DNA of 40,299 bases, from IMG/VR virus record IMGVR_UViG_3300028578_000002; one strand, written 5' to 3'. Position 1 is the first letter of the stretch. Each line of letters opens with the position of its first letter. Under the pieces are notes generated by a model. It was not told where the DNA came from and made no database searches. It worked only from the letters and a program-made list of their open reading frames with translations. A program made the position numbers and the translations under genes. This document shows, one piece after another, positions 18,527 through 40,299 of the stretch. The DNA comes from a virus.

Positions 18527-18535
18527 GGGCGCGAA

Positions 18536-21191: not shown

Positions 21192-21204
21192 GGTGGTCAT
21201 CCTC

Positions 21205-23235: not shown

Positions 23236-23241
23236 GGTGCG

Positions 23242-23472
23242 CTAGCCCTCCGCGGCCGGGACGATGACCTGGGCGAAAGACACGTTGGTGCGCTCGACGA
23301 TGACGTCGCCGTCGAGCCGGACCGGGTCACGTGCGGCCTCGAGGAGGTAGGCGTCCTTGAGCACGAGCAACGGTCCCCGGGCCTCGAACAGCACGCCGCG
23401 GATGGCGACGGCGTCCTTGAGGTTGACGAGGACTCGGCGATGGAGCGCTACCCGGCGCCACGACGAGAACAT
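23242..23472 (-). CDS. Hypothetical 76-aa protein directly upstream of portal
   Basis: Good G/C third-position bias. ATG 23472 is abutted by the TAGCCT motif. Confidence 0.6.
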   Translation of the reverse strand: MFSSWRRVALHRRVLVNLKDAVAIRGVLFEARGPLLVLKDAYLLEAARDPVRLDGDVIVERTNVSFAQVIVPAAEG

Positions 23473-23491
23473 GCCGCGAGGCTACGCCGCG
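23473..23491 (-). promoter_or_regulatory. Motif copy A3 (CGCGGCG TAGCCT CGCGGC | ATG)
   Basis: Read on the minus strand at the end of a 112-nt non-coding gap. No Shine-Dalgarno. Confidence 0.5.
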
Positions 23492-23584
23492 TCCTGGGGG
23501 GTGCTAGGGATCGGGGCGCGGCACCGGCCCGAGCCGAAGCCCGGACCGGCCACCGGTGTCGCAACCCAACCGACCGCGGTGACG

Positions 23585-23797
23585 CTACCCGGTGCCCTCC
23601 GCGATCCGAAGTACCTGCACGTTGGAGAGCCCGGCGAGCCCACCGATGGCCCGCGCTGAGGGCGGGTCGGGGAGCGCACGGAGCTCTCGGATGATGGCGT
23701 CGCGCGCGGCCTTGGATCCATCGACCTGGGCCTCGGCCGCGTCGAGCCGGAGGCGCACCGAGCGAAGCCGGCTCTCGAGCTCGGCCCGGCTAGCCAT
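23585..23797 (-). CDS. Small coiled-coil + HTH DNA-binding protein
   Basis: 70 aa. ...RDAIIRELRALPDPPSARAIGGLAGLSNVQVLRIAEG. Same architecture as 2948-3202 and 33965-34234. Confidence 0.6.
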   Translation of the reverse strand: MASRAELESRLRSVRLRLDAAEAQVDGSKAARDAIIRELRALPDPPSARAIGGLAGLSNVQVLRIAEGTG

Positions 23798-23966
23798 GGT
23801 CGTCCTCCCCGAGGTCGCACGACAGGGCCGTCACGTTGCCGAACCCGTTGCGACGGACGATGCAGGTGACGCCGTCGATGACCTCGGTGTGCGGGCTGCG
23901 GTCGGCGCATCCGCTGGCCGCGAGCACGAGCGCGACCACCGCGGCCACCGCGCGACGGCTAGCCAC
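23790..23966 (-). CDS. Small lipoprotein (58 aa)
   Basis: GTG 23966. Signal peptide plus lipobox VAAVVALVLAASGC. Second Cys pair further along the sequence. Confidence 0.5.
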   Translation of the reverse strand: MASRRAVAAVVALVLAASGCADRSPHTEVIDGVTCIVRRNGFGNVTALSCDLGEDDHG

Positions 23967-24429
23967 GGTCGTCGTCCGGCATCGGTGAGAAGAGCCAGGG
24001 GGACTCTCCCGCGAGGGTGATCCCGTAGCCGTGGAACGTCGCGAACAGGGCCCAGACGACGTAGAAGCCGGGGAGGCTAGCGACGATGAACCGGGCCGCC
24101 GCGCCGCGCTGGCGGATCGCGACGTCGATGGCATGGTCGGCGACGAGCCGACGGAACACCGCGACACCGACGTCGTTGAGCACGAGCTCGTCATCGGCGA
24201 TGACACCGAGGCCGAGGTCGACGGCCTCGATGTCGTCCATCTTCCCGGCGGCGAGCAGGGCCTTGACGAGGATGACGAGCTCCTCGAGGTCATGGTCGGA
24301 GATGGTCTCGGCGTCGGGCTCGGTGTTGACGAGCTCGTCGAGGGTGACGGTCTCGACCGGGAGCTCGACGTCGACGTCGGGGTCGTCGGCGCCGGTCTCG
24401 GCGTAGAGGTGGGCGAGGGGGTCGGTCAT
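23959..24429 (-). CDS. Acidic protein with a C-terminal hydrophobic anchor (156 aa)
   Basis: ORF trimmed to ATG 24429 (ATGA coupling). The N-terminal half is D/E-rich. The C-terminus FIVASLPGFYVVWALFATFHGYGITLAG is TM-like. Confidence 0.6.
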   Translation of the reverse strand: MTDPLAHLYAETGADDPDVDVELPVETVTLDELVNTEPDAETISDHDLEELVILVKALLAAGKMDDIEAVDLGLGVIADDELVLNDVGVAVFRRLVADHAIDVAIRQRGAAARFIVASLPGFYVVWALFATFHGYGITLAGESPWLFSPMPDDDRG

Positions 24430-24719
24430 CGGTTCGTGTCCTCCTTGAGGAACGCTTGGGCTTGTCGGTGTGAGCACGAGCAGTCGATCGGGCACTCCCC
24501 GTTGGGGCCGTAGTCCATGGTGTGCCGACGGAGGAGTTCGGTCGCTCGAGCGGCGCGGACCTCGGCGTCGGCCCATGCGCGGCCGAGGTCCTTCACGGTG
24601 GGCCAGCCGAGTTGGTGGAGCTCAAGGCGCATCGTGGTCCCCTCGAGCGCGTCGGCCACCACGTGAGCGAGGTCCTCGCGGAGATGGCGTAGCGCTCGGA
24701 GCTTCTCGCGGATGGTCAT
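24426..24719 (-). CDS. Hypothetical 97-aa protein
   Basis: AAGGAGG lies 8 nt upstream of ATG 24719. C-terminal Cys/His cluster GECPIDCSCSH. Confidence 0.6.
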   Translation of the reverse strand: MTIREKLRALRHLREDLAHVVADALEGTTMRLELHQLGWPTVKDLGRAWADAEVRAARATELLRRHTMDYGPNGECPIDCSCSHRQAQAFLKEDTNR

Positions 24720-24859
24720 GGGATGAGCCTCCTTGCGGCTCGGCCGGTGAGCCGGCCGTAGATCCGTCGCAGGATGCGGCGGAGGATGCGTCCGCGCCGG
24801 ATGGCACGGAGGTCGTTGGCGACCCGGAGGCCGCGGTAGAGGTGGTCGCGCGTGCTCAT
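24716..24859 (-). CDS. Arg-rich 47-aa peptide (15 Arg; RRGRILRRILRRIYGRLTGR)
   Basis: Not in the ORF track because it is under 60 aa. ATGA overlaps at both ends (24856-24859 and 24716-24719). Translated by hand with no internal stop. Confidence 0.5.
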   Translation of the reverse strand: MSTRDHLYRGLRVANDLRAIRRGRILRRILRRIYGRLTGRAARRLIP

Positions 24860-25086
24860 CGGAGCACCACGGCGACGCCGTCGATGCGGAGGTCGACGTC
24901 GAGCTCAGGGAACCGCTCGCGGATGGAGCGGAGAGCGGCGGAGGCAGCGCCGCTGATCACGTCGGCGGCGAACTCGGCGAACTCCTCGGCCTCGTCGGGG
25001 CGCTCGTCGAAGTCGAGGGCCTCGTAGCGGGTGAAGAGCTCGAGCTTGGTGTCGAGGATCTGGTCCTTGGTGGTGGTGTCGGTCAT
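24856..25086 (-). CDS. Acidic 76-aa protein, first gene after terL
   Basis: ORF trimmed to ATG 25086, 7 nt after a TAGCAT hexamer. An alternative ATG at 25095 would overlap that hexamer. Confidence 0.55.
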   Translation of the reverse strand: MTDTTTKDQILDTKLELFTRYEALDFDERPDEAEEFAEFAADVISGAASAALRSIRERFPELDVDLRIDGVAVVLR

Positions 25087-25103
25087 GGCCGCCATGCTAC
25101 ATG
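25087..25103 (-). promoter_or_regulatory. Motif copy C1 (CATG TAGCAT GGCGGCC | ATG)
   Basis: Read on the minus strand. It is embedded in the second hairpin after terL. Confidence 0.4.
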
Positions 25104-25135
25104 GTGTAGCACGCTGGCGCAAGTGGCTCTTGCGC
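25096..25135 (-). terminator. Two adjacent hairpins immediately after the terL stop
   Basis: GCGCAAG-5 nt-CTTGCGC (25117-25135, includes one base of the stop codon) and GCTACA-3 nt-TGTAGC (25096-25110). No U-tract. Confidence 0.3.
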
Positions 25136-26982
25136 TAGGCGACGGTGAGGCCGGCGTCTTCGTAGGCCGAGGTGGTGTAGGTCTCGCGGGTGTAGCCGTC
25201 GACGGCCATGACCACGGCGACGGCGGGGTCGACGTGGCCGGTCGACCGGGACCGGTTGGGCTTCACGTTGAGCGCGGCGTCCTGCTCGACGGCGAGGTTC
25301 TCAAACGCGTACCGCAGGAGCGGGTTGCCGCCGGTCCAGAGCCGGCCCTCGGCGATGATCCGCTCGGTTTCCTTCATGGCGGGGGAGATCCCGGCGAAGC
25401 CCTGGCCGACCTCGGCGACGGTGAGGCCGCCGTCGCGCAGGTGTTGGAGGATCTGCTTGGAGCCCCACCGGTCGAACGACAGGCGTGCGAGCTCGAGCTC
25501 ATCGGCGAGGTGCATGGCCTCGTCTTCGATGGCGTCGTAGTCGATGGTCTCGCCGGCGCAGAGGCGGAGCCATCCGTCGCGTGCCCACCGGGTGAAGAGC
25601 TCGCGCACCGCGGGCGGCCTCGACTTGAGCCGCTCCGCGGGGGTCCACGCGCGGAGCACGACCTCGAGGACCTCGATCTCGTAGTCAGGGTCCGCAGGAT
25701 CGGGTACCCACAGGGGAACGGCGACGGCGAGCGCGGTGAGGTCCATGGACGACGACAGGTCGAGCCCGGCGTAGCCGACCTGGCCGCGCACCGCGGGCCC
25801 GAGCGTCCCGATGTGGGTGCCGCCGAGCTTGGCACCGCGGTCGTAGAGGTCCAGGTCGAGCCAGCGTGACACCGTCGAGGTGCGCACGTTGAGGTGCAGA
25901 CGCAAGAACGCGAGGCGCTTGCGTTCCGAGCGCCGTGCCTTTTTGACGTTGTCCTCGAGGTAGTCGACCGACACCGACACACCGAGCCCGGGGTTGGCGA
26001 CCTGCCAGACGTCGGGGTCGTCCCACCGGTCATGGAGGTGCTCGGGAATGGAGTAGATCACGGCCCAGGTGCGCAGGTCGGTGACACGTCCGTCGCCGAT
26101 CGCTTCGGCGAGGTCATGGAGCTCGGCGTAGATGGTGCCGTCGGTGTCCGCGCCGGCGGTGGTGAGGTGCGCAACGAGGGGTTGGGCGCGGCCGACGGTG
26201 CCGGACTCGATCGTCTCGATGAGCCGGGCGTCGCGATGCACGTGGGTCTCGTCGATCACCGCGCCCGACACGTTGCCGCCCATCTTCTCCTCGGCCTTCG
26301 CGGGGTCCCCGGAGATCACCTCGGCGCGCGAGAGCGTCCGCTCGTAGACGAGGGCCCGGTCGGCTTGGATCCCGAGCCGCTCGTACAGGGTCCGCGACGC
26401 GCGGACCATTGCTTCCATGGGGCGGAACACGTTGCGGGCCTGGTCGGTGGTGGTCGCCGCGAGGTACACCTCGGCGCCGGGCTCGAACAGCCGGCCCGCC
26501 GCGAGGTTGGAGTCCGCGAGCAACAGGTAGAGCGCGAGCACCGCGGCGAGGGTGGTCTTGCCGTTCTTGCGTGGAACCTCGAGGAACAGCGTGCGGTAGA
26601 ACCGGTTGCCGTCGGCCTGGCGCCACCCGAACACCGGGGCGAGCACGTAGATGACCTGCCACAGGTCCGGCCGCAGACGGCGCCCGGCGAGCTCGCCCTT
26701 GGAGTGGCGGCCGTTCTTCCAACAGAACTCGAGGACACGCCGGACCTCGTCGACGTTGAACGTGATGCCGTGCCGGCGGCGCATCTCCCGGTTCGGCGGT
26801 GCCGCCACCGACAGAGGCGGGATGCACCGGTCGAGCTCGGCGTCGAGGTCACGCCAGTACCCGAGCTCGCCGAGCACCTCCGCCAGACCCGGCATCGCGG
26901 CGAGATCCGCACGGACGCGGGCCCGTCGGGCGTCGACGTCGAGCGGGTCTCTACGTGCCGAAGTCGAAGCCGTCGTCGTCAT
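25135..26982 (-). CDS. terL: Terminase large subunit (Terminase_1 type)
   Basis: ORF trimmed to ATG 26982. Walker A region FLEVPRKNGKTTLAAVLALYLL, followed by AEVYLAATTTDQA and a C-terminal nuclease region. Confidence 0.9.
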   Translation of the reverse strand: MTTTASTSARRDPLDVDARRARVRADLAAMPGLAEVLGELGYWRDLDAELDRCIPPLSVAAPPNREMRRRHGITFNVDEVRRVLEFCWKNGRHSKGELAGRRLRPDLWQVIYVLAPVFGWRQADGNRFYRTLFLEVPRKNGKTTLAAVLALYLLLADSNLAAGRLFEPGAEVYLAATTTDQARNVFRPMEAMVRASRTLYERLGIQADRALVYERTLSRAEVISGDPAKAEEKMGGNVSGAVIDETHVHRDARLIETIESGTVGRAQPLVAHLTTAGADTDGTIYAELHDLAEAIGDGRVTDLRTWAVIYSIPEHLHDRWDDPDVWQVANPGLGVSVSVDYLEDNVKKARRSERKRLAFLRLHLNVRTSTVSRWLDLDLYDRGAKLGGTHIGTLGPAVRGQVGYAGLDLSSSMDLTALAVAVPLWVPDPADPDYEIEVLEVVLRAWTPAERLKSRPPAVRELFTRWARDGWLRLCAGETIDYDAIEDEAMHLADELELARLSFDRWGSKQILQHLRDGGLTVAEVGQGFAGISPAMKETERIIAEGRLWTGGNPLLRYAFENLAVEQDAALNVKPNRSRSTGHVDPAVAVVMAVDGYTRETYTTSAYEDAGLTVA

Positions 26983-27508
26983 CGCGCTCGGCTCCCTGTC
27001 CCGCACCCGCGGCCGCGCCCGGGCGCAGCGACACACGCGCCGACGGGGTGAGCCCGAAGTCAGAGCACCACGCACGGTAGGTGTTGACCGCCATGTTGAA
27101 CGTCGAGAACGCCGGATGCTTCTTGAGCATCCCGCCGTGCGCGTTGTCCTTCACGACGACCTCGTAGCCACGACGGCGCCCGTCGTTCTCACCGTCGGAA
27201 CGCTTGTAGCGCATCGCCTCGAGCGACGAGATGGCCATTGCGTAGCACTCGCACGCCAACCGGAACGACCCCACGTCGAGCCGCGTGAGCAGACCGAGCC
27301 GCTCGAGCTCCGGCGCATGCAGCCGCCAACAGTCCCGGGCATGGGGCGACAGGTCCTTCGGCGGGTCGACATCACGGACCGGTTCGGCCTTGACCTCAGC
27401 GGCCTCGCGCTCCTCGAGCTCGGCCTTCGAGAGCTTCGCCCGGTTCCCATGCAACCGGATCACCTCCGCAGAGTGGCGCGGCGGCCCCGGCTTGCCCGGC
27501 CCGGCCAT
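26951..27508 (-). CDS. terS: Terminase small subunit, P27 family
   Basis: MAGPGKPGPP...LSPHARDCWRLHAPELERLGLLTRLDVGSFRLACECYA...AWCSDFGLTPSARVSL matches the P27-family pattern. Confidence 0.85.
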   Translation of the reverse strand: MAGPGKPGPPRHSAEVIRLHGNRAKLSKAELEEREAAEVKAEPVRDVDPPKDLSPHARDCWRLHAPELERLGLLTRLDVGSFRLACECYAMAISSLEAMRYKRSDGENDGRRRGYEVVVKDNAHGGMLKKHPAFSTFNMAVNTYRAWCSDFGLTPSARVSLRPGAAAGAGQGAERDDDDGFDFGT

Positions 27509-27795
27509 CAGGCGCTCCGCTCGAGGTCGGTGAGCTCGTCGAGCACGAGCCGTGCGGCCGCACCACGGTCGACCTTGGCCGCCGGCAGCGGCCGGGGCGA
27601 CTCGACCACCATGCCGTGCCCGGCATGCTCGTGCTCAAGATGCGCCGACGCCGCGCCCACTGCCCGGACCCGGCCCGGCACAAGCACCGGCATCGCACCA
27701 TGCGCCGAACACGCCACAGCCCACCCCGTCACCCGGCCACGCGGAGCCTCCCCGAACAGCACGACAACCGGGTCGACGAGCGGCGGGAGCCTCAC
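27508..27795 (-). CDS. Hypothetical 95-aa protein
   Basis: GTGA coupling upstream and a TGATG overlap with terS. It uses G- and T-ending codons, unlike the bulk genes. Confidence 0.5.
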   Translation of the reverse strand: MRLPPLVDPVVVLFGEAPRGRVTGWAVACSAHGAMPVLVPGRVRAVGAASAHLEHEHAGHGMVVESPRPLPAAKVDRGAAARLVLDELTDLERSA

Positions 27796-28118
27796 GACCC
27801 CGGCACCTCCCCCGGCCCGGCCTCAAGCGGCGGGCCCGTCACCGACGCCGGCATCACCACCTCACCCGACTCAATCCACCCGGCCAGCACCGACGTGTCC
27901 CGACGCAACACCGCCAGCAAAGCCGGCGTCGCCTCACCCTCCTCGGTCCCCATCAACCCCGCCGCCTCCGTCTCGAAGCCCGCCGGATCCTCGACCGCAC
28001 GAGCCTCCCACGTCGCATAGGCCTCCGCGAGCGCCACCACCTCCGGCGCCACCTCCGCGACCTGCGGCCCGAACTCATACCCCGGCGGAACCACAGGGCC
28101 AGCACGCCAGTCCGTCAC
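27792..28118 (-). CDS. Hypothetical acidic 108-aa protein
   Basis: GTGA coupling to the HNH stop. Same atypical G/T-ending codon habit as its neighbour. Confidence 0.5.
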   Translation of the reverse strand: MTDWRAGPVVPPGYEFGPQVAEVAPEVVALAEAYATWEARAVEDPAGFETEAAGLMGTEEGEATPALLAVLRRDTSVLAGWIESGEVVMPASVTGPPLEAGPGEVPGS

Positions 28119-28660
28119 GGATCGACCCTCCTCCGGCGCCGAGACGGCGGCGCCAAGCCGGTGTCCTCAGAGCCTACGCGGCCCCGCACAGGCGACCTCG
28201 GACCACCGTCGGAGCGCGCGTGGTTTCCCCGGCGGTCCTTCGGCGAGGGGATGAGCCGATCGCGACGCCCTTCCCTCTCGCTCGGGCTCGGGCCCGGGTC
28301 GATGTCGTCTCCTCGTGTTCGTCGTCGGGCGAGGTCGGTGGCGGTCTTGCGGGAGTGGCAGGGGTGGCAGAGGGGTTGGTGGTTGTCGGGGTTCCATGGG
28401 TCGCCGCCGTCTTCGAGGGGTTGGATGTGGTCGACGTCGGTGGCTGGTTGTCGGCATCGTGGGGTGGCGCACCATGGGTGCTCGAGGAGGTAGCGGCGGG
28501 AGTAGGTGCGCCACCGTGGGGTGCGGTAGATGGCGAGGCTGGTTGCTCGCTGCGCGTTGCGTTGAGCGTCTGAGCCTGGTCGGTGGGTGTCGTGGTCGGG
28601 GCAGGGGCGGAGGTGGGGGCAGGGCCAGGCTGGGCATGGGGTGGGGTTGCGGGTGGGCAC
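28115..28660 (-). CDS. HNH endonuclease (packaging-associated type)
   Basis: IYRTPRWRTYSRRYLLEHPWCATPRCRQPATDVDHIQPLEDGGDPWNPDNHQPLCHPCHSRKT. The only in-frame start upstream of this motif is GTG 28660, which gives a Pro/Cys/His-rich N-terminus encoded by the C-rich tract. Confidence 0.8.
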   Translation of the reverse strand: MPTRNPTPCPAWPCPHLRPCPDHDTHRPGSDAQRNAQRATSLAIYRTPRWRTYSRRYLLEHPWCATPRCRQPATDVDHIQPLEDGGDPWNPDNHQPLCHPCHSRKTATDLARRRTRGDDIDPGPSPSEREGRRDRLIPSPKDRRGNHARSDGGPRSPVRGRVGSEDTGLAPPSRRRRRVDP

Positions 28661-28720
28661 GGTCGTAGTTTGCTGCGGGTGGTGGGGTGGTCGGTTCGAT
28701 GGTGGGGGTGGGGTGGTGGT
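28582..28720 (+). repeat. G-run-dense tract with at least two canonical G-quadruplex motifs on the plus strand
   Basis: GGGGCAGGGGCGGAGGTGGGGGCAGGG (28598-28624) and GGGCATGGGGTGGGGTTGCGGGTGGG (28632-28657), plus further GGGG/GGGGG runs to 28713. Confidence 0.8.
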
Positions 28721-28743
28721 GCCCGTCGTTTTTTCACGGGCAC
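28719..28743. other. Hairpin with an A/T-rich loop in the divergent non-coding region
   Basis: GTGCCCG-TCGTTTTTTCA-CGGGCAC (7-bp stem). The T6 run is the most AT-rich spot in the window. Confidence 0.6.
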
Positions 28744-28859
28744 GTTGCGACCTGAGAACCCGGTAGCCCCGCCAGGCTTGACAGAGCCGGTACGCTGTGG
28801 CGGTCTCGGCGCGGAGGCAGAGCCGCCCAGTGTGGCGTCCACCGGGGTCGGGCAACGTG

Positions 28860-29306
28860 ATGAGGAGCGCGGAGCGCATGAGCAGGAACGTCGAGCGGCG
28901 GTTCGCGTACCGGTCGCCAGGGCTCTACGACCGAGTCGTCGAGCACGTGGTGCAGGCTCGAGCCGAGGGGATCGGCTGGGCTGAGCTCCTGGCCCGGGCC
29001 GACCCGGACAACGAGTACGCCGAGCGCAGCGTCGAGGGCGCGATCCGTGAGCTCTGGATGCTCGGCCTGCTCTCGGTCGGTGGCCGGGCCGGGACGTACA
29101 ACCGGCCGAGCACGCGCCGGGTGTGGGTGTCGCCGCTCGGGTTCGCTGCGCTCGCTGGTGAGGTGGCTGACCTGCCCTGGTCCTCTGCGCTGTGGCGCGT
29201 CGACGGTGACGATGACGAACCGGTCGGCGAGGACTGGGTACCTGAGGTGCCGGGAGCGGCCGAGCTCGCCGAGGTGGTCGACGTGGTCCTCGACCGGGAG
29301 CCGTGA
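28860..29306 (+). CDS. Winged-helix-like DNA-binding protein (start uncertain: 28797 GTG, 28860 or 28878 ATG)
   Basis: YDRVVEHVVQARAEGIGWAELLARAD...SVEGAIRELWMLGLLSV...RRVWVSPLG resembles a wHTH. First gene of the plus-strand cassette. Confidence 0.55.
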   Translation: MRSAERMSRNVERRFAYRSPGLYDRVVEHVVQARAEGIGWAELLARADPDNEYAERSVEGAIRELWMLGLLSVGGRAGTYNRPSTRRVWVSPLGFAALAGEVADLPWSSALWRVDGDDDEPVGEDWVPEVPGAAELAEVVDVVLDREP

Positions 29307-29733
29307 CGACACCGGCGCATCGCCGTCCTCCGATGGCCCGGGATCTGCCGTGCTGGCGGCGACCGTACCGGGAGCGTCGGCGGCGTGGGCCGCTGGTGTT
29401 GCCGCCGTGCTCGCTCTGCGGGGCGGAGGTCCGGCCACCCCGGTCAACGTGGTGCTCTCGGGACTGCGTAGACCTGTGGCTCTGGACGGCGCGCCCCGCG
29501 GTGGCCCGGGCCATGCTCGTCGCCCTCCATGGCCCGGGCTGCTGGGAGTGTGGGGTCATGATCCTCGGGCTGAGGTCGATCATGTGCGGCCGCTCTGGTC
29601 GCTCGACGAGGTGGAGCGCTGGCAGTTCCGGTGGTGGTCACCGTGGAATCTGCAACTGCTCTGCCGTGGGTGCCATCGTAGGAAGACCGCCCGCGAGGCG
29701 GCCGAGAGGGGAAGACGACATGCCGAGGCGTGA
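29303..29733 (+). pseudogene. HNH endonuclease split between two frames at the G-run 29552-29555 (1-nt indel, assembly error or -1 shift)
   Basis: Frame of 29303: CSLCG...WCSRDC...GPGCWECG. The -1 frame continues (G)HDPRAEVDHVRPLW...NLQLLCRGCHRRKT to the stop at 29733. Joined, they form a canonical HNH. Confidence 0.65.
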
Positions 29734-29869
29734 TGGGAATGTGTCGGGGTGGCGGTTGAGCCGTGCTCGCCGGCGGTGTGAGGCGCGGCGGTGGGCGCGG
29801 CGTGCGGCGCGGTTGACGGCGGCGCAGAGTCGGGCCGAGCCGCCTGAGCGCAAGTTGTGGCCGACGTGA
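29720..29869 (+). CDS. Possible basic 49-aa protein
   Basis: ATG 29720 lies in the frame of ORF 29303..29869. Its TGA overlaps the next ATG (TGATG). Weak call. Confidence 0.3.
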   Translation: MPRRDGNVSGWRLSRARRRCEARRWARRAARLTAAQSRAEPPERKLWPT

Positions 29870-30138
29870 TGCGCTGCTCGTGCTGGCCGGAGTGTGGCCT
29901 CCCGGGGTGGGCGCCGGATGGGCGGTGCTCGGCGTGCAGGGCGCGGGGGTGCCCGCCGTGGTACCTGTTGGCCGTGCTGGCCGAGCTCGAGCGGGAGCGG
30001 GTGCGTGCGGCGATGGTGGCGCGTGCCCGTGAGCAGGGCGGCGCCTTGGCGGAGGCGCTTGGGCTACCCGCGGGTGTGACGGTGGTGTTCGATGAGCGGC
30101 CGCTCCTTCGCATGGCCCAGCGGGAACGGTGGACCTGA
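29869..30138 (+). CDS. Small Cys-rich protein (89 aa)
   Basis: MRCSCWPECG...CSACRARGC followed by a helical region. ORF 29857..30138 trimmed to ATG 29869. Confidence 0.5.
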   Translation: MRCSCWPECGLPGWAPDGRCSACRARGCPPWYLLAVLAELERERVRAAMVARAREQGGALAEALGLPAGVTVVFDERPLLRMAQRERWT

Positions 30139-30174
30139 GCGCGGCGTGCTCAACTATCCGGGTTGTCCACAGGG

Positions 30175-30195
30175 GTTGTGGGTAGCGTGGTGGCC
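30175..30195 (+). promoter_or_regulatory. Motif copy B2 (GTTGTGGG TAGCGT GGTGGCC | ATG)
   Basis: The 20 nt at 30182-30201 are identical to the minus-strand sequence of 6055..6036, including ATG GCA. Confidence 0.45.
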
Positions 30196-30348
30196 ATGGC
30201 AGTGCTGCTCGTGGCTCTCGATGGCCCTGAGGTTCGACCGGTGGTCGAGGTCGATGGTGTGCTCGTCGACGTCGAGACCGGCGCGCCCGTCGAGCTCGAG
30301 CGGGTGGTGCTGCGGGCGGTGACGGTCGGGGAGCGCTCTGCGGCGTGA
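30196..30348 (+). CDS. Hypothetical 50-aa protein (MAVLLVALDGPEVRPVVEVDG...)
   Basis: ORF 30163..30348 trimmed to ATG 30196 because the TAGCGT motif abuts it exactly as at 6041. Confidence 0.4.
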   Translation: MAVLLVALDGPEVRPVVEVDGVLVDVETGAPVELERVVLRAVTVGERSAA

Positions 30349-30381
30349 AGACGGCGGGGATGCGGGGCCGTGCGCTGGCGG

Positions 30382-30417
30382 GGCGCCGCGCGGTGGTGCT
30401 TCACCGGTGGCGGCGCC
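30382..30417 (+). terminator. GC hairpin between the small plus-strand genes and the next motif/promoter
   Basis: GGCGCCGC...GCGGCGCC 8-bp arms with an inner GGTG-CTT-CACC. GGCGGCGCC is repeated just downstream. No U-tract. Confidence 0.25.
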
Positions 30418-30469
30418 AACGGGCGCGCCGGGCGGCGCCGGTGCGCCAGGTCGCGGGTAGCGGCTCGCC

Positions 30470-30489
30470 CCGCGGCGTAGCCTCGCGGC
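30470..30489 (+). promoter_or_regulatory. Motif copy A1 (CCGCGGCG TAGCCT CGCGGC | GTG)
   Basis: Read on the plus strand directly abutting GTG 30490. No Shine-Dalgarno. Confidence 0.5.
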
Positions 30490-31245
30490 GTGGGTGAGGT
30501 GCTGATCTCGGAGCGCAGGTCGAAGCCGTCGGCTGGGACGCGCTCAGCGTCGGGGGTGTCGGTGGCGGGCCCGTTCGAGGTCCTTGAGGGTGATGAGCTC
30601 GAGGAGGTCCTCGCGTCGGCTGACGGGGCCCTCGAGGGCCTGGCTGAGGCGATGGCGACGTTGGAGGCCTCGGCGGGCGTGGTGGCGGTGGAGACGCTCA
30701 CGGAGGACCTGGCGGCGCTGGGGGCGAGGACGCGGCTGGTCGGCGGCGGGGTGGGCACCTCTGCGGTGGTCAACACGGTCGTGGAGACCGATCTGGTGTC
30801 GACGTCGACACCGTTGGGCCTGGTCGCTGGTGACGTGCTGGTGTTGCGGGTCCGCGGGACGGTCCTGAACGCGTCGGCGGGCCCGGTGACGTTCTTGCCG
30901 CGGGTGCGTCTGGCGGGCGTCGCGGTGGTCGCTGGCGCGGCGGTGGCTCAGCCGGTGAACGTGCTGCCGTCGGAGTGGGACCTCGAGGTGCGGATCCGGG
31001 TGAACACGATGCTCGAGCAGGTGATCTCGGCGCGCGGGTGCCAGGGTGCGCCGGCGCTGCCGGGGGCGCTGGGGGCGACGGTGCCGGGCGGCCCGTTCGA
31101 TGGGGTGGCCCGGTCATCGGGGACGGCGAACCTGGCGACGGCCAAGACGCTGCGGGTGACGGTGCAGATGGGCACGGCGTCGCCGGCGGCGTCGTGCGCG
31201 CTCACGGCGTGGGAGCTCGTGCTGCTGCGCTCCCCGACGTCCTAG
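30490..31245 (+). CDS. Fibre/receptor-binding-like protein (251 aa): helical N-terminus + beta-rich C-terminus
   Basis: The plus frame gives a protein-like sequence, while the antisense ORF is S/T/P/R junk. Strong GTG/CTG/GCG/ACG codon preference, unlike the bulk genome. Confidence 0.6.
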   Translation: MGEVLISERRSKPSAGTRSASGVSVAGPFEVLEGDELEEVLASADGALEGLAEAMATLEASAGVVAVETLTEDLAALGARTRLVGGGVGTSAVVNTVVETDLVSTSTPLGLVAGDVLVLRVRGTVLNASAGPVTFLPRVRLAGVAVVAGAAVAQPVNVLPSEWDLEVRIRVNTMLEQVISARGCQGAPALPGALGATVPGGPFDGVARSSGTANLATAKTLRVTVQMGTASPAASCALTAWELVLLRSPTS

Positions 31246-31997
31246 AGCTCGTAGTCGGTGGGGAACGTGGCGCGCAGCCACGTCTCGAAGGGCGCCGCGG
31301 CGGCGGTGAGGGCGGCTTCGGAGTGGCCGAGCGCACCGACGCTGATGAGGGTGACGTCGTCGAGGGCCGCGGCGAAGGTGACGGCGGTGGCCGGGGAGAC
31401 GAGGGGGTCGTCGCTCGCGTAGGCCAAGAACACGGGGCAGGCGATCTGGCCGGGCAGGTTGACCGGGTTGGCGTCGGGGACGACGTTGGGGAGAGGGTCC
31501 TGGGCGGCGAGGCCCCATGCGGTGTTGAACGACGCGGGGAACAGGGCCCGGACCGCGGCGGCGTCGATGGCGGGGATCCACAGGGCGAGCCCGGCGACGT
31601 CTTCGGGGTGCTGGGCGGCGTAGCGGGTGGCTACGAGCCCGCCCATGGAGCCGCCGGCGACGAGCTTGGGGCCCGCTGAGGCCCCGCCGGCCTCGAGGAG
31701 CGCAGACGCGGCTGCGACGTCGGCGAGGGCGTTGGCGTTGCCCCAGTTGTCGCCGCCGAAGTCGCCGGCGTAGCAGAAGTGCCGGGCGGTGATGAGCGCA
31801 CGCAGGGCCCCGGAGCCGGGCTTGGCGGGGTCGAACCACGAGGTGGCGGTGCCGCCGGCGCCGTGGCACAAGATGGCGCCGCGGTGGGTGCCGTCGCGCT
31901 TGGAGAGCCGGGGGCGGGTGCCGATGTCGGTGTTGGCGGCGCGGACCGCTCCGATGGATCCTCGCTTGAGGTAGGCCCCGCGGTTGTCGGTGAGCAT
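31242..31997 (-). CDS. Alpha/beta-hydrolase fold esterase/lipase
   Basis: Oxyanion-hole region ILCHGAGG, nucleophile elbow GGSMGG, and candidate acid and His residues in ASDDPLV and LGHSE. Confidence 0.7.
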   Translation of the reverse strand: MLTDNRGAYLKRGSIGAVRAANTDIGTRPRLSKRDGTHRGAILCHGAGGTATSWFDPAKPGSGALRALITARHFCYAGDFGGDNWGNANALADVAAASALLEAGGASAGPKLVAGGSMGGLVATRYAAQHPEDVAGLALWIPAIDAAAVRALFPASFNTAWGLAAQDPLPNVVPDANPVNLPGQIACPVFLAYASDDPLVSPATAVTFAAALDDVTLISVGALGHSEAALTAAAAPFETWLRATFPTDYEL

Positions 31998-32000
31998 CGG

Positions 32001-32591
32001 CTAGAGCTCGAGGACGAGGAGACGGAGCGGGGTGTCCGCGGACCCGAAGGCGTGCGCGACACCGGAGGCGATGGCCTGGCCGAGCTTGACCTCGTAGGTG
32101 TGGGGCCCGGCCGCGGGGGTGAGCGCAATGCCCTTCCAGTGGTTCTGGATGGCGTTGACCGCCGAGGTGTGCGCGGTGAAGTCGAGGGTGACGCCGTCCT
32201 GTTGCAACACGAGCCGGGGGCCTTGCCCGTTGGCGGAGTGGTACACGGGCCCGCCCCACAACACGACGAGGGGCCGGGCGGTGACGGCGATGTCGGGGCA
32301 GATGAGCCCGCCACCGGCGAGGGAGATGGGTCCGACCGCGGCGTTGAGGGCGGTGTCGGACTGGTTGTCGTCGGAGCCGAGGATCCGCCCGCCGATCGAC
32401 GCGAGCGCGGAGGCGAGGGCGTCTTCGAGGTCGCCGACGTCGTTGCTGAGCGCGGCGAGGGCATCGGCGAGGCCGACGACGGTGCCGCCGAGCGCGGTGA
32501 CCGTCGCGGTGAGCGCCTCGAGGTCCGCGGCGAGCTCGGGGACGGTGGCGAGCGCGGTGGCGGGGACGGTGACGAGGTCGAAGCGGTCCAT
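32001..32591 (-). CDS. Fibre/receptor-binding-like protein (196 aa)
   Basis: Ala/Leu-rich coiled N-terminus (ELAADLEALTATVTALGGTVVGLADALAALSNDVGDLEDAL) followed by a beta-rich C-terminal domain. Confidence 0.55.
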   Translation of the reverse strand: MDRFDLVTVPATALATVPELAADLEALTATVTALGGTVVGLADALAALSNDVGDLEDALASALASIGGRILGSDDNQSDTALNAAVGPISLAGGGLICPDIAVTARPLVVLWGGPVYHSANGQGPRLVLQQDGVTLDFTAHTSAVNAIQNHWKGIALTPAAGPHTYEVKLGQAIASGVAHAFGSADTPLRLLVLEL

Positions 32592-32594
32592 GGC

Positions 32595-32858
32595 CTAGTA
32601 CTCGATCTCGTAGGAGACGACGCCCGTGGACAGGAGCCGTATCGCGGTGGGGCCTTCGAGGTCGCGGGTGATGACGCGCCGCACGCCGGGGGGGACGATG
32701 CGGGTGTCGTGCTGGCCGATGGCCGGGTCGCCGCCGTCGACGCGGACCAAGAGCAGGTCGGTGCCGGCGTAGTTGAACACCGCGATCGAGCCGGCGTCGT
32801 CGTTGAAGTTGACCTCAGCGACGGTGTCGGCCTCGGTGGTGCCGTGGTGGGTCGTCAT
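32595..32858 (-). CDS. Hypothetical beta-rich 87-aa protein
   Basis: ATG 32858 is abutted by the TAGCCT motif. G/C third positions. Confidence 0.6.
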   Translation of the reverse strand: MTTHHGTTEADTVAEVNFNDDAGSIAVFNYAGTDLLLVRVDGGDPAIGQHDTRIVPPGVRRVITRDLEGPTAIRLLSTGVVSYEIEY

Positions 32859-32879
32859 GGCCGCGAGGCTACGCCGCGG
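32859..32879 (-). promoter_or_regulatory. Motif copy A2 (CCGCGGCG TAGCCT CGCGGCC | ATG)
   Basis: It fills the whole 21-nt gap between the stop at 32880 and ATG 32858. Confidence 0.5.
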
Positions 32880-33233
32880 TCACTGCTCGTCGCGGTACTC
32901 CTCGAGCCGGCGTTGGAAGTCGGCGGCCTCCTCGGCGGCGGCGGGGTACAGGTCGAGGCGGATGAGGTCGAACTCGAAGCGGTGTCGTTCGCGGAGTTCG
33001 TTGAGGGCCCGGCTGTAGGTCATCTGCCACGCGGCGCGGTGGACGTCGGGGACGTCGAGGGACCGTTCACACAGCAGGCAGGTGATCCGGGCTGGGTCTT
33101 CGGTGGCCTCGTAGCGGTCGACGTCGCGCTCGGTGAAGAACAGCCGGCCGCAGGCGAGCCAGACGGTCTCACCGAGGTCGTCCTCGCGGGGCTCGACGTG
33201 GTCGATGAGATGGACGCGCCGCTTGCCAGTCAT
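32880..33233 (-). CDS. Hypothetical 117-aa protein
   Basis: ORF trimmed to ATG 33233 (ATGA coupling). Confidence 0.6.
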   Translation of the reverse strand: MTGKRRVHLIDHVEPREDDLGETVWLACGRLFFTERDVDRYEATEDPARITCLLCERSLDVPDVHRAAWQMTYSRALNELRERHRFEFDLIRLDLYPAAAEEAADFQRRLEEYRDEQ

Positions 33234-33580
33234 CCGACGGCGATGTCGGGCGCGGTGCGCTGGTCGATGTAGGCGACGTGCGCGGGCTCGAGCTTGAGGT
33301 CGAGCGCGATGGCCTCGAGGGTCTCGCCGGCGGTGATGCGCCGGCACGCGTAGTAGAACACCGCGGGCTTTAGCCCGATCGCGGCGAGGTCGGTCCCGGT
33401 GACGGTCATGGCCGGCGCGGGGACGATCAGCGGCGTGCGCCGGCGTCGTGGTGGCCGGTTGCACGTCGCGCAGTGGCGCCGGCACGCGGGGAGGTCGCAG
33501 CGGCAGAGCCCGGAGCATCCGGGCTCGTGGTCGTCGTGGCGGTCCTCGCCGAGCGCGGTCCCGCAGATATGGCACCTCAC
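33230..33580 (-). CDS. Cys-rich (zinc-ribbon-like) protein with a possible C-terminal HTH
   Basis: MRCHICG...CSGLCRCDLPACRRHCATC, followed by ...ITAGETLEAIALDLKLEPAHVAYI. ATGA coupling. Confidence 0.6.
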   Translation of the reverse strand: MRCHICGTALGEDRHDDHEPGCSGLCRCDLPACRRHCATCNRPPRRRRTPLIVPAPAMTVTGTDLAAIGLKPAVFYYACRRITAGETLEAIALDLKLEPAHVAYIDQRTAPDIAVG

Positions 33581-34235: not shown

Positions 34236-35882
34236 TCAGAACTCCTCTTCGCCTTCGGGCCAGGGCCCTCGGACGACGTTGTCGGTTGGATGGTCGGGAT
34301 CGAACAGCGCGGGGTCATCGCGCGGTGGCTCGGTGGGGCCGGGGTCGCCGCCGTCGGCGTAGGGGCGGATGAGGCGCAGGACCTTGGAGCGTCCGGCGCG
34401 TGCTTCGACGACGTAGCGCTCGACGATGAGCCGGGAGATGGCTTCGGTGACCAGCTTGGGCTTGTCGGAGTGCACGAGGCTCTTGAGCGCGGTGGCGGAG
34501 AGCCCGTCGGGTGCCTTGGCGAGCTCATCGGCGCAGCGGCGCATGAGCACGGTGGGTTTCCACGTGTCGTTGGCGGAGACTTCGCCGGTGTCGCGGGTGA
34601 GGCGCATGAGGACGCGGGTGCCGTCGGCTTTGGGTTCGATGTCGACGATCGCTGCGGTGTCACCGATCGCGCCGACACCTCCGGGCCGGTCCTTGGCGAT
34701 GACCAGACGCAGCCGCCCGGCGCGGGTCCGTGAGAACGGGACGACGACCTTGACGAGGTAGGCGGAGCCGTCGACCGCGCCCAACTTGGCGCCCGAGCCG
34801 CGTGCCCACCGGCCCTGCTCTTCGCGGTTCTTGACGACGTGGTCGAGCATCAACACCGCGGCGCCGGTGCGGGCGAGCCAACGCGGGAGCGCTTCGACCC
34901 ATGCGACGACCTCGGCGGCGCGGTCTTCGGCGTAGCCGTCGCGGACCAAGGCTTCGGCGACGCCGTCGATGACGATGAGGTCGGGGTTGAGGGTCTTGCA
35001 CAGGCGCGAGAGCTCGACGCGCTCGGTGGGTCCGAACGGGCCTGACGGCTGGATGTACCGGAACCGGTGGCGCACCGCGGCGGGGTCCGCGCCGAGCGCT
35101 AGGAGCCGGCCGAGGATCCCGACGGAGGTGTCCTCGTAGTCGAGGTACACGACGGCTCCGCCCATCGCGAGGACCTCGAGCGCAGCGAGCAGAGCGAGCC
35201 AGGACTTGCCCGACGACGGCTCGGCCTGCAACACGTGCATCTTGCCGCCGTAGAGCAGGGCCCGGCCGTCGTTGCGGCGCAGGAAGTCGGGCTCTTCGGT
35301 GGTGAGGTCACCGTCGAGGAGCGCGGCGACGTCGGCGACGTCGAGGGAGGAGTAGGACCGGGACCCGTTCTGTGACGCGACGCCACCGAGGAGCGCTTGG
35401 GCTCGCAGGATGACGTCGTGCGCGTCGTCGGCGCGCGACCCGTACCCGAGCTCGGAGATCTCCGCGCCCGCCGCGAGGAGCCGGCGCAGCGTCGCGAGGT
35501 CATGGACGATGGTGGCATAGCGCGCCGCGTTGGACGTGGCCGGTGCGGTGGCCATGAGCCCGGCGACGAACGCGGGGCCGCCAACGGACTCGAGGAGCCC
35601 GCGGCGGGTGAGCTCTTCGCCGACGGTGACCGAATCGACGGCTTGGCCTTGCTCGAACGCGTGGCGCAGCACCGCGGCAACGTGGCCATGACCGGGCTTG
35701 TAGAAGTCGCCGGGCTCGGTGCGCGTCGCCAGCACCTCGAGCGCGTCGGGCGAGATCATGGCGGCACCCAACAACGACGCTTCGGCGTCGAGGTTCGACG
35801 GCGGGACGCGGCCCGCAGGTCGATCGGGTTGGTTGGCGACGGGCCGGCCGCGGGTAGCGTGTCGGGCGCGGTCGTCGGTCAT
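34236..35882 (-). CDS. dnaB: DnaB-like replicative helicase (DnaB N-terminal domain + RecA/AAA_25-type NTPase + C-terminal wHTH-like tail)
   Basis: N-terminal PPSNLDAEASLLGAAMISPDALE...DFYKPGHGHV...VGGPAFVAGL. Walker A AEPSSGKSW. Walker B-like VLMLDH. Confidence 0.8.
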   Translation of the reverse strand: MTDDRARHATRGRPVANQPDRPAGRVPPSNLDAEASLLGAAMISPDALEVLATRTEPGDFYKPGHGHVAAVLRHAFEQGQAVDSVTVGEELTRRGLLESVGGPAFVAGLMATAPATSNAARYATIVHDLATLRRLLAAGAEISELGYGSRADDAHDVILRAQALLGGVASQNGSRSYSSLDVADVAALLDGDLTTEEPDFLRRNDGRALLYGGKMHVLQAEPSSGKSWLALLAALEVLAMGGAVVYLDYEDTSVGILGRLLALGADPAAVRHRFRYIQPSGPFGPTERVELSRLCKTLNPDLIVIDGVAEALVRDGYAEDRAAEVVAWVEALPRWLARTGAAVLMLDHVVKNREEQGRWARGSGAKLGAVDGSAYLVKVVVPFSRTRAGRLRLVIAKDRPGGVGAIGDTAAIVDIEPKADGTRVLMRLTRDTGEVSANDTWKPTVLMRRCADELAKAPDGLSATALKSLVHSDKPKLVTEAISRLIVERYVVEARAGRSKVLRLIRPYADGGDPGPTEPPRDDPALFDPDHPTDNVVRGPWPEGEEEF

Positions 35883-38763: not shown

Positions 38764-40070
38764 TGCTTGGCCCTTTCGAGGGAGAGGTCCTCGACGTACC
38801 CGACGAGCACGGCCTCGATGCCCGACCCGGTGATCTCGTCAAGGGTGGTGGGCGCGACCACGTCGTCGTAGTCACCCGCGACCCGGGCCGCCTCGCGCAG
38901 GACCTCGGTGACCTTGACGCCACGCTCGCTGAGGAACGTGCGCCAGTCGTCGCCGGTCCATGAGGTGGCAGGTGGCCGCACCGGGCCAGACGGTCCCGGC
39001 GCGGCCACCCTCCGGCGCCGGGGCGGCTGAGGAGGGCGATCCTCGGCGGGAGCCGCGGCGGCGGTCTCGGTCTCGATGTTGTAGTCGGCGGGGTCGAACC
39101 CGTCAGCGGAGATGGTCTCGAGGATGGTGGTGACCTCGTCGGGGGCGAGGTCCTTGGTGGTGTCGATGTCGCGCCCGACGATCGCTGAGCACAGGGCGAT
39201 CTTGGCGTCGCGGTCGAGGCCGAGCTCGGCGATGCGAATGGCGATGATCTGGCCCGGGCTGTAGGTGCGCGCACCCTCGTGCGCCGGCGGCGGGTCGGGG
39301 TCGCGCTCGAGCGGGCCGTCGTCGATCACCTCGCCGTCAGGGCCGACGAGCTCGGCGTCGACGGGCTCGTCGTCACCCTCACCGGGGAGCGGCGGGGCCT
39401 CGCGCTCAACCGGCGGGGCGGGGTCCGGCTCGGTCTGTGCTGGCGCACCGGACCCGCGTGTCGCCGGTCGTCGCGCACGTGCGGTGCGCCCGGGCGGCGG
39501 TGCCGGCGCGTCGACGGGGACCTCCTCGACCTCGATGAGGTCGCCGTCCTCGAGCTCCTCGACGGTGTAGGAGATCCCCGAGAGCACGTCGGCGAAGATC
39601 GCCCGGCAGAGTTGCCCGGTGGCGCGGGCCGTCAGCATCGCCGTCGGGTACTTGCGCCAGACGTCTTTGCCCGCGAGGTTGGCGCGCTTGGCGTCGTCCA
39701 TGGTCCACGTGACGCGGGTCTCGCGGTCGGAGCCCTTGCGCTTGCCGCCGATGATGACCCGGGTGGAGGACTGCTCTTCGATCCACAGGTCATGGCCGTC
39801 GCGCAGCACCACGGCGCGCATGAGCTCCGCGGACATCGCGGGTCGGCCTTCGATGACGTGGATCTTCGCGAGGGCCTGCATGGGGGAGATGCCGACCTCG
39901 GCGCCGGTCAGGATCGCGGCGAGGATCGCCTCGGGCTTGCCCCGGAGGGCCTTCGGGACAAAGTCGGTTTGCTGCAACGTCTGCGCGAGCTTCCACGCGT
40001 CGTTGGCCAGGGCGATGGTGGCGTTGGGGCCGGCGTAGCGTTCGAGCGCTGCGCCAGTGGTGTCGGTCAT
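38760..40070 (-). CDS. recT: RecT-family single-strand annealing protein with a long C-terminal extension
   Basis: FVPKALRGKPEAILAAILTGAEVGISPMQALAKIHVIEGRP...WRKYPTAMLTARATGQLCRAIFADVLSG. This is followed by an acidic/Pro linker and a further ~170 aa. AGGAG lies upstream of ATG 40070. Confidence 0.7.
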   Translation of the reverse strand: MTDTTGAALERYAGPNATIALANDAWKLAQTLQQTDFVPKALRGKPEAILAAILTGAEVGISPMQALAKIHVIEGRPAMSAELMRAVVLRDGHDLWIEEQSSTRVIIGGKRKGSDRETRVTWTMDDAKRANLAGKDVWRKYPTAMLTARATGQLCRAIFADVLSGISYTVEELEDGDLIEVEEVPVDAPAPPPGRTARARRPATRGSGAPAQTEPDPAPPVEREAPPLPGEGDDEPVDAELVGPDGEVIDDGPLERDPDPPPAHEGARTYSPGQIIAIRIAELGLDRDAKIALCSAIVGRDIDTTKDLAPDEVTTILETISADGFDPADYNIETETAAAAPAEDRPPQPPRRRRVAAPGPSGPVRPPATSWTGDDWRTFLSERGVKVTEVLREAARVAGDYDDVVAPTTLDEITGSGIEAVLVGYVEDLSLERAKQ

Positions 40071-40249: not shown

Positions 40250-40299
40250 GAGCCGACCACCGGCGGGGGCAGGGCGTCGCTCTTCACGGTCGACGCGGC
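40173..40299. repeat. Second copy of the 127-bp terminal repeat
   Basis: Identical to 1-127. Confidence 0.95.

Follow-up and report, generated by a model that had tools for sequence, protein, structure and literature searches.

Start-abutting TANNNT hexamers as predicted -10 elements of leaderless promoters, and an associated GRTCC box, in an uncultured actinophage clade

Results

Gene content and relatives of the phage genome

The DNA analysed here is IMG/VR virus record IMGVR_UViG_3300028578_000002. The whole stretch of 40,299 nucleotides is referred to as the window. Our subject is a hexamer, TAGNNT, that is found next to start codons in this sequence and that is predicted to be the -10 element of promoters giving leaderless mRNAs. 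The first and last 127 bp of the window (1-127 and 40173-40299) have the same sequence. Hence, the assembly is complete and circular, with a true length of 40,172 bp and genes spanning the junction. The G+C content is 71% and the minus strand holds almost all genes. Using Pfam, we identified terS (26951-27508), terL, portal (21205-23235), prohead protease and major capsid protein (18589-20037) genes, together with those for tail-completion, tail-tube (11926-12495), tape measure and peptidoglycan-binding lysin (5155-5865) proteins. Also recognised were DnaB, RecT-like and RuvC-like proteins, an HNH endonuclease and a methyltransferase/glycerophosphotransferase island. The window has no tRNAs and no Rfam matches.

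There was no near-identical DNA among 50,697 cultured phages. The portal protein is 44% identical to those of Arthrobacter phages, and the closest cultured phage is Arthrobacter phage Kuleana. Searches with the portal protein detected many uncultured relatives, with 58-71% identity, on long metagenome contigs. For comparison, we used six related loci with independent gene calls (L003, L005, L007, L008, L009 and L010; 133 genes). Further relatives were L002, from IMG/VR, the early-region relative L145 (DnaB 58%), and a prophage. A prophage scan with a single portal protein as the query gave nothing, while a profile used instead gave 80 loci. The closest genome-embedded relative (L062/L011; OY970242.1, 2255531-2277450; portal 52%) is in the metagenome-assembled genome of an uncultured member of the Microthrixaceae (Acidimicrobiia, Actinomycetota). 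Nearly all other prophage relatives sit in Actinomycetota. The Microthrixaceae prophage hints that the clade may infect bacteria other than the usual phage hosts among the Actinomycetes.

TAGNNT hexamers abut start codons

An original prediction, made from the sequence of the window, listed eight sense-oriented TAGNNT copies, each following a non-coding gap, as candidate promoters. All eight are present, and we found one further start-abutting copy, at 28666 (+). These sites, and a neighbouring hairpin, are as follows. Distances in nucleotides (nt) are from the hexamer to the start codon.

30470-30492 (+): family-A copy, CCGCGGCG TAGCCT CGCGGC GTG; hexamer 30478-30483; predicted leaderless GTG at 30490, opening ORFan 30490-31245
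32856-32879 (-): family-A copy; TAGCCT 32871-32866, 7 nt, ATG 32858; opens an 87-amino acid (aa) gene
23470-23512 (-): candidate bipartite promoter of the portal unit; GATCC 23512-23508, 23-nt gap, TAGCCT 23484-23479, 6 nt, ATG 23472
23517-23556 (-): terminator-like GC-rich hairpin just 5' of the portal-unit site; -33.5 kcal/mol, z -1.97
12493-12574 (-): candidate bipartite, leadered promoter of the tail unit; GGTCC 12574-12570, TAGCCT 12546-12541, 45-nt stretch, ATG 12495 of the tail-tube gene
6039-6082 (-): candidate bipartite promoter of the lysis unit; GATCC 6082-6078, TAGCGT 6054-6049, 7 nt, ATG 6041
30155-30198 (+): candidate promoter of a small divergent gene; TATCC 30155-30159, TTGTCCACAGG 30163-30173, TAGCGT 30183-30188, 7 nt, ATG 30196 of a 50-aa open reading frame (ORF)
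25084-25103 (-): -10-only copy; TAGCAT 25099-25094, 7 nt, ATG 25086; first gene of the post-terL small-gene island; no GRTCC box
18506-18566 (-): candidate post-capsid terminator-promoter pair; 13-bp GC hairpin 18533-18566, TAGGAT 18521-18516, 7 nt, GTG 18508
28666-28681 (+): start-abutting copy absent from the original prediction; TAGTTT, 7 nt, GTG 28679; within the divergent stretch that separates the HNH gene from the plus-strand block; coding of the ORF is uncertain

Counting both strands, TAGNNT occurs 16 times in the window. It is rarer than expected, since 300 dinucleotide shuffles gave 33.4 +/- 5.6 occurrences. Of the 16, 8 are followed by ATG or GTG at 6-7 nt; the shuffles averaged 2.0 such cases and never exceeded 6. 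Note that these eight are seven of the copies originally predicted plus that at 28666; the 12546 copy is leadered and not included. Each begins an ORF in the coding direction, with lengths between 50 and 520 codons. The gaps that precede the predicted copies are 21-141 nt long. GC-rich, terminator-like hairpins lie directly upstream of three sites.

Although TAGNNT is common to all eight predicted copies, they are not uniform; four are identical, two are identical and two are loose. The first group (family A) shares CGCGGCGTAGCCTCGCG, with exact copies at 12537-12553 (-), 23475-23491 (-), 32862-32878 (-) and 30471-30487 (+). This is the sole exact 17-mer with more than two copies, and for three of them identity reaches 19-20 nt. 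The second group has two exact copies of GTAGCGTGGTGGCCATGGCA, at 6036-6055 (-) and 30182-30201 (+), so that the lysis-unit site and 30182-30201 share an exact 20-mer. According to an exact k-mer census, which replaced a generic repeat scan swamped by codon periodicity, no other non-terminal exact repeat of the genome is as long as those of these two families. An exact 18-mer had one match in IMG/VR, which was unrelated.

We compared the translation signals of 57 window genes. Shine-Dalgarno (SD)-like motifs precede 26 genes, TANNNT at 6-7 nt precedes 7, and 24 have neither and are mostly stop/start-coupled. The start-abutting genes were originally said to lack SD sites. Indeed, GGAG/GAGG-type sequences are absent from all seven, though an overlapping AGGA is found at 18508. 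The 12546 copy, noted originally as lying 45 nt from an ATG with its own GAGGAG, is a leadered site. Its predicted leader is ~39 nt long and contains the GAGGAG. Taking 23 sites together, the base at -1, with respect to the predicted transcript start, is a pyrimidine in 21 (P = 3e-5), and a pyrimidine at -1 is combined with a purine at +1 in 21/23.

As an aside, stop codons in the window are 33 TGA, 23 TAG and 0 TAA. Many gene junctions have the form TAG-N2-6-start without an SD site, which suggests widespread coupling of termination and reinitiation.

Hexamer and spacing are conserved in relatives

The relatives show the same sharp spacing. Across the six loci, with 133 called genes in all, TANNNT is found 6 nt before the start of 4 genes, 7 nt before the start of 7 genes, and at none of the spacers 0-5 or 8-14. 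From the hexamer density, about 0.1 occurrences would be expected per offset. At sites equivalent to those in the window, the variants TACCCT, TACGCT, TATCCT and TAACCT occur. Hence, the signal is TANNNT rather than a TAG stop codon. The final T is retained in every variant at orthologous sites. In Kuleana, genes are SD-led and the start-abutting pattern is absent. Kuleana is thus unsuitable as an experimental proxy.

These data bear on the possibility that the hexamers are chance occurrences, or a by-product of TAG stops and short junctions. With 23/56 genes ending in TAG, many TAG-N2-6-start junctions, and a 12546 hexamer whose TAG doubles as the stop codon of the tail-completion gene, the idea has some appeal. 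However, the shuffles fall short of the observed count, and no called upstream gene ends at the TAG of the 7 start-abutting copies. The non-stop hexamers of the relatives, always with the final T, also speak against it. We consider that the shuffle counts, and the spacing and variants in the 133 genes, refute a stop-codon artefact, and give this explanation almost no weight.

At the pre-portal site, the hexamer and an upstream GRTCC box, described below, are kept in 9/9 genomes (alignment A2). The distance from hexamer to ATG is 6-7 nt in 8/9 genomes and 8 nt in L002. The N-terminus of the small gene is conserved as MF(A/S)W or MLAW in most genomes and is different in L002. In place of the CGCGG arms of the window site, relatives have unrelated sequence. 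Hairpins equivalent to 23517-23556, with different sequences, are also found in relatives. At the tail-tube site, the hexamer is present in every genome, 39-56 nt from the gene and followed by a strong SD. Here, 8/8 genomes retain the box-N23-hexamer arrangement, despite differences at the C-terminus of the overlapping protein. Since these more distant copies are always followed by an SD, the hexamer fits a transcription signal and not a translation signal.

Post-capsid sites of L003, L005, L008 and L009 consist of a hairpin and TANNNT-N6/7-start. It was initially suspected that the 18526 copy could be a weak AGGA ribosome-binding site. The orthologous sites have TACGCT, TATCCT or TAGCCT, at the same spacing and without AGGA, so we take the 18526 copy to be a -10 box. 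For the packaging operon, box-plus-hexamer orthologues were found in L002, L003, L005 and L009. Predicted leaderless starts are missing from the gene calls of relatives at L003 3213 and 14591, L005 10164 and L002 831, and L002 4264 is missed or truncated. The mis-called genes include the HNH gene in L003 and a small post-capsid ORF beginning MAE.

A motif that abuts starts without SD sites might alternatively work at the RNA level. In this view, a read-through transcript would carry a short hairpin immediately before the start codon, with TAG in the loop. The hairpin might promote translation initiation, like the start-associated sequences in Cluster K mycobacteriophages, or be cut by an RNase to create leaderless ends. 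Inverted arms do flank the hexamer in several window copies (CCGCG/CGCGG, CCACGC/GCGTGG and CCATG/CATGG). However, fold energies are no better than those of shuffles for 5/6 window sites (z-scores -1.2 to +0.5) and 4/5 sites in relatives, the arms neither covary nor are conserved at orthologous sites, and there is no Rfam match. These observations speak against a structured RNA element or terminator at the motif. Furthermore, the motif has no anti-SD complementarity and is found 39-56 nt upstream of SD-led tail-tube genes. Such leadered copies exclude a translation signal of the start-associated sequence type. Overall, we judge an RNA-level signal to be extremely improbable.

The arms are also relevant to an operator or 'stoperator'-like function, whereby a phage protein would bind the 17-20 nt family-A repeat (CGCG GCGTAGCCT CGCG), and gate transcription at unit boundaries, with TANNNT incidental or overlapped. 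Four exact 17-mers, with CGCG at both ends, go beyond the needs of a -10 box, and small helix-turn-helix (HTH) proteins are encoded by the phage. The 30470 copy is within a strong palindrome, at 30464-30498, that extends across the start codon (-23.7 kcal/mol, fold z-score -3.9). Repeated asymmetric intergenic motifs, of unknown function, are found in Microbacterium phages (PMC7302621). Conversely, there are four copies only; the two-copy family and loose copies share just GTAGCNT and the spacing. Pfam scans gave no repressor or integrase. Moreover, orthologous sites in relatives do not retain the arms, but do retain the hexamer and the distance from it to the start. Because only hexamer and geometry are conserved across relatives, a pure operator array is unlikely. 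Operator function is compatible with regulation layered on a promoter, but does not replace one. For instance, a regulator could bind the four identical 19-mers of the window. The palindrome, which the other copies lack, may be an operator or the terminator of an upstream plus-strand transcript.

The sharp spacing, orthologous conservation of the hexamer, and -1 pyrimidine match the published signature of actinobacterial leaderless genes. In line with the original prediction, we conclude that TAGNNT, more broadly TANNNT, is in all likelihood the -10 element of promoters for leaderless mRNAs. This conclusion is drawn in silico.

A GRTCC box lies 23 nt upstream of core late hexamers

Alignment of 36 sites on the hexamer identified a second conserved element, G[GA]TCC, at -28 to -24 from the first T. 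We refer to this as the GRTCC box. The pattern G[GA]TCC-N(gap)-TANNNT was counted at every gap between 15 and 31. On the sense strand of eight clade loci there are 31 matches at N23 and 8 at N24. At other gaps, and in the antisense orientation, there are 0-1. Because the motif is visible in the relatives alone, the window provides an independent test. It has five matches at N23, all on the sense strand (hexamers 28176, 23484, 20223, 12546 and 6054) and none on the plus strand, compared with a chance expectation of about 0.14. Only one match, with a gap of 20, was found at the other gaps. Two of the corresponding sites are new:

28116-28204 (-): candidate bipartite, leadered promoter of the packaging/late operon; GGTCC 28204-28200, TAGGCT 28176-28171, 52 nt, GTG 28118
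20218-20251 (-): candidate capsid-internal promoter; GATCC 20251-20247, TACGGT 20223-20218, ~180 nt 5' of ATG 20037 (major capsid)

The first would give a ~46-nt leader, with GGAGGAGG before GTG 28118, and has its hexamer inside the 3' end of the HNH gene. The second lies within the protease/scaffold gene and is kept in 8 genomes. Since the site is in coding sequence, and may be constrained by the protein, this conservation is ambiguous.

The box is a property of the clade. It is present in both L002 and L011, which were examined after the motif had been defined. Outside the Microthrixaceae prophage, there is no box at N23 in 79 other actinobacterial prophage loci (1.5 Mb), and none is found in the 16-kb early region of L145. 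The strict bipartite pattern has 49 single matches in IMG/VR, of diverse GC content. None are start-abutting and we treat these as background. Homologues of the lysin, used as a test of the lysis-unit site, are in unrelated mosaic phages without the box. In the literature searched, we found no description of a fixed GRTCC-N23-TANNNT architecture.

Within the window, the box accompanies five predicted promoters, namely those of the packaging operon, portal unit, tail unit and lysis unit and the capsid-internal one, and is confined to late and lysis regions. Predicted promoters of accessory islands (25099, 18521, 32871 and 30478) do not have it. With respect to the predicted transcription start, the box is at about -40 to -36. 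This is 5 nt too far upstream for a -35 hexamer and the box may therefore be an activator site. That it serves a clade-specific activator is a possibility we put forward tentatively.

Alternatively, GGTCC could be the -35 element of an extracytoplasmic function (ECF) or other alternative sigma factor, of host or phage, with CGnC just 5' of TA as the -10 and a start inside, or just after, the hexamer. ECF promoters have the form GGAAC-N16/17-CGT, to which GGTCC-N18-CGNCG bears a loose likeness. C-5, G-4, C-2 and G-1 are enriched upstream of the hexamer. We think this arrangement very unlikely. The spacing is 1-2 nt longer than typical for ECF promoters, CG precedes TA also at sites with no box, and Pfam scans detected no sigma factor gene. 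Neither the exclusive 6-7 nt spacing nor the -1 pyrimidine would be explained.

A single canonical promoter and a proposed scheme for transcription

Only one canonical promoter was found in the genome:

3246-3275 (-): TTGACA-N18-TACGTT, 5' of HTH gene 2948-3202

A counterpart, TTGAAG-N17-TACGTT, is located 5' of the HTH homologue in L145. The site at 3275-3246 is the probable early promoter. As to the protein that might read the GRTCC box, the product of HTH gene 2948-3202 is only a guess. Separately, TTGACA-N7-TACGCT is common to the window at 28778-28796 (+) and L145 at ~15533 (-). The two elements are not spaced as in a -35/-10 pair. In L145, this TACGCT is followed by N6-GTG (96-codon ORF) and, in the window, by GTG directly.

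If TANNNT is the -10 element, we envisage that RNA polymerase with the host principal sigma factor would read it. Where the hexamer ends 6-7 nt before ATG or GTG, the transcript would begin with the start codon itself. The leaderless mRNA would then be translated without an SD site, in the standard actinobacterial leaderless mode. Where it lies ~45-180 nt upstream, a leadered mRNA would result, with a normal SD in the tail-tube and packaging cases. Together with the upstream GC-rich hairpins, the promoters would divide the minus-strand array into packaging operon, post-terL island, portal-capsid, glycan island, tail and lysis units. A hydrolase unit and a short plus-strand block would remain. 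The 'fibre unit' labels of the original prediction are not supported; one such unit encodes an alpha/beta hydrolase and two proteins without known function, and the other is an ORFan.

The single early promoter, and the distribution of the box, lead to the simplest model; a host-type early promoter, then box-dependent late promoters, plus -10-only promoters of islands. The activator, probably a phage product, would be expressed from the canonical early promoter at 3275-3246. Promoters of the core late and lysis units would then be the timed late promoters and accessory-island promoters would have the -10 element only. With still less confidence than we have in a clade-specific activator, we suggest that G[GA]TCC at a fixed 23-nt gap, plus an extended -10 (CGnCG-TAGCCT-C), might define an undescribed late promoter class in this uncultured actinophage clade and one Microthrixaceae prophage. 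A clade-encoded factor would redirect host RNA polymerase to these -35-less promoters, firing onto start codons. Such a switch, resembling sigma appropriation or a class II activator, would make leaderless late mRNAs.

Several observations weigh against our interpretation of the hexamers and box. First, a -35-like element is absent at most sites; nTGACn at 16-18 nt occurs only at 3275-3246. Note that a weak nTGACn is found in about 60% of host promoters, and is not obligatory for the family. Second, the family-A identity, 17-20 nt in four copies, exceeds the needs of a -10 box. Third, small HTH proteins aside, Pfam scans of the window gave neither a sigma factor nor an evident activator. Fourth, orthologous sites are non-independent observations. 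Fifth, several box-plus-hexamer sites (tail-tube, packaging and capsid-internal) are in coding sequence and protein constraint may explain part of their conservation. Finally, the JGI gene caller chose 30562, rather than the predicted 30490, as the start of ORF 30490-31245, and a homology search with this ORF returned only itself. A consensus sigma-70 scan found nothing in 17000-33500. This is because TANNNT hexamers match TATAAT at only 3/6 positions.

Features of individual sites

For ORF 30490-31245, the GC pattern across codon positions favours the plus strand. The site at 30470 has no strict GRTCC box, and GGTCG is present, shifted by 1 nt. At 32858, the 87-aa gene heads a three-gene unit, of which the last gene encodes the alpha/beta hydrolase. 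Its match to phrog_32632 starts at residue 4, and the site has no SD and no GRTCC box. ATG 23472 opens a 76-aa gene preceding the portal gene, with a match to phrog_6750 that starts at residue 5. The gene at ATG 6041 encodes 57 aa and is followed by the peptidoglycan-binding lysin. A hairpin at 25113-25136 lies upstream of the 25099 hexamer. A short RNA from the 28666 promoter was also considered, and folding gave no support for it.

Close to the pre-portal site, the gene 5' of the gap ends with TAGC(C/G/T)T in four genomes (window 23585-23587 (-), L003 9658, L005 4975 and L008 2139). GRTCC at N23 precedes this in 3/4 genomes. The gene end may be a second promoter, ~100 nt 5' of the leaderless one, or may reflect coding constraint.

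Upstream of the 50-aa ORF at 30196, which has a weak protein match in L002, we noticed a further element. Sites equivalent to 30155-30198 have the form TT(A/G)TCCACAGG-N8-TAGGAT/TAGGTT-N6-ATG in L003 and L145. The TT(A/G)TCCACAGG element is 8-9 nt 5' of the -10 hexamer in the window (30163-30173 (+)), L003 (~3030 (-)) and L145 (~15450 (-)). In L007, upstream of 4039 (-), the element is present and there is no TANNNT hexamer. It is positioned between the divergent promoters of the small leaderless gene and the HNH/packaging operon and, from sequence, looks like the operator of a regulatory switch.

The post-capsid hairpin at 18533-18566 has a fold energy of -35.3 kcal/mol (z -4.35). GTG 18508 begins a 520-aa gene, the first in the methyltransferase/glycerophosphotransferase island (14248-18508 (-)). 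This island, between capsid and head-tail genes, encodes the 520-aa protein, without known function, a methyltransferase, and a CDP-glycerol glycerophosphotransferase-like protein. Its gene composition differs among relatives. The island probably serves to add glycan or teichoic-acid-type groups to the virion or cell wall.

Discussion

Comparison with known promoters and repeats

In Actinobacteria, TANNNT located ~12 nt before the start codon marks leaderless genes (Zheng et al. 2011, PMC3160421). In the transcription start site map of S. lividans, TAnnnT is found in 93% of leaderless promoters (PMC8079986), and leaderless transcriptomes are described for M. tuberculosis and M. smegmatis (PMC4633059). 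The window sites share many features with such promoters, which depend on the principal sigma factor. The first T of TANNNT is 12-13 nt before ATG or GTG, there is no SD, and a purine start follows a pyrimidine. In addition, relatives occur as prophages in Actinomycetota genomes. The -10 consensus in Streptomyces is TAGRRT, with G at hexamer position 3 as in the window. Unlike host leaderless promoters, the window elements are part of an array of phage late genes, and an identical stretch of 17-20 nt is common to four of them. They also differ in that TTGACN at 16-18 nt is absent, except at one early promoter, and core late copies have GRTCC 23 nt upstream.

Short repeats near genes have been reported for other actinobacteriophages. 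Leaderless phage genes are also known, such as one predicted in mycobacteriophage Adephagia (PMC11373665). Microbacterium Cluster EC phages have an 18-bp motif, TAGaCTATaGGTgTaAgC, and there are Cluster EI repeats and start-associated sequences in Cluster EF and mycobacteriophage Cluster K (PMC7302621, PMC11373665). Like these, the window motif is a short, asymmetric, sense-oriented repeat in small gaps of packed operons, including the terminase-portal interval, and at inserted genes. The Cluster EC motif even starts with a TANNNT-like sequence, TAGaCT. However, Cluster EC motifs are 22-30 bp from the start and have no assigned function, and none of these repeats resembles the window motif in sequence. 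Similarly, Cluster K and EF start-associated sequences differ by occupying the ribosome-binding position with an SD-like core, whereas the window motif has no GGAG/GAGG and is at -10 geometry.

Cluster A mycobacteriophage stoperators, of which there are ~20-35 per genome, bind the immunity repressor of a temperate phage. The window repeats are likewise asymmetric, oriented with transcription and near gene boundaries. In contrast to stoperators, there are four identical copies in the window, and neither a repressor nor an integrase among its Pfam matches. Among the relatives, the conserved core is a -10 hexamer spaced as in a promoter.

Activator-dependent phage promoters can keep the host -10 and replace the -35, as with the T4 MotA-box middle promoters and the extended -10 middle/late promoters of Thermus phage P23-45 (PMC7403470). 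The window sites resemble these in having a host-like -10, no -35, a group-specific upstream element at a fixed distance, and a location at late genes after one early promoter. The GRTCC box differs from the MotA box in sequence and in position, lying at about -40 to -36 rather than -30, and homologues of MotA/AsiA and gp39/gp76 were not found in the window. Many P23-45 transcripts are reportedly leaderless, a parallel with the leaderless mRNAs predicted for the window, whose presumed host is likewise rich in leaderless genes.

Implications

To date, late-gene promoters of actinobacteriophages have been poorly defined. TANNNT 6-7 nt before a start, with or without GRTCC 23 nt upstream, is a simple rule from which the transcription units and correct start codons of an entire uncultured clade of phages can be predicted. 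It also separates conserved core late promoters from those of inserted accessory islands. Gene callers routinely miss, or mis-start, leaderless genes; at least four starts were missed in relatives, and a downstream start was chosen in the window. The GRTCC box is a defined DNA target with which to seek a late activator. The leaderless part of the system is ordinary for the presumed host phylum, and knowledge of leaderless expression in Actinobacteria is unchanged. The clade-specific box is a modest novelty. Neither the box, nor the leadered sites at 28176 (-) and 20223 (-), nor the canonical promoter at 3275-3246 (-), featured in the original prediction.

We also note two antisense TAGCGT hexamers, at 35855-35860 and 40036-40041 (+), ~20-30 nt inside the 5' ends of the minus-strand genes for DnaB and the RecT-like protein. 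That at 35855-35860 has TTGGCG at 16 nt. The pair may be antisense promoters or may have arisen by chance.

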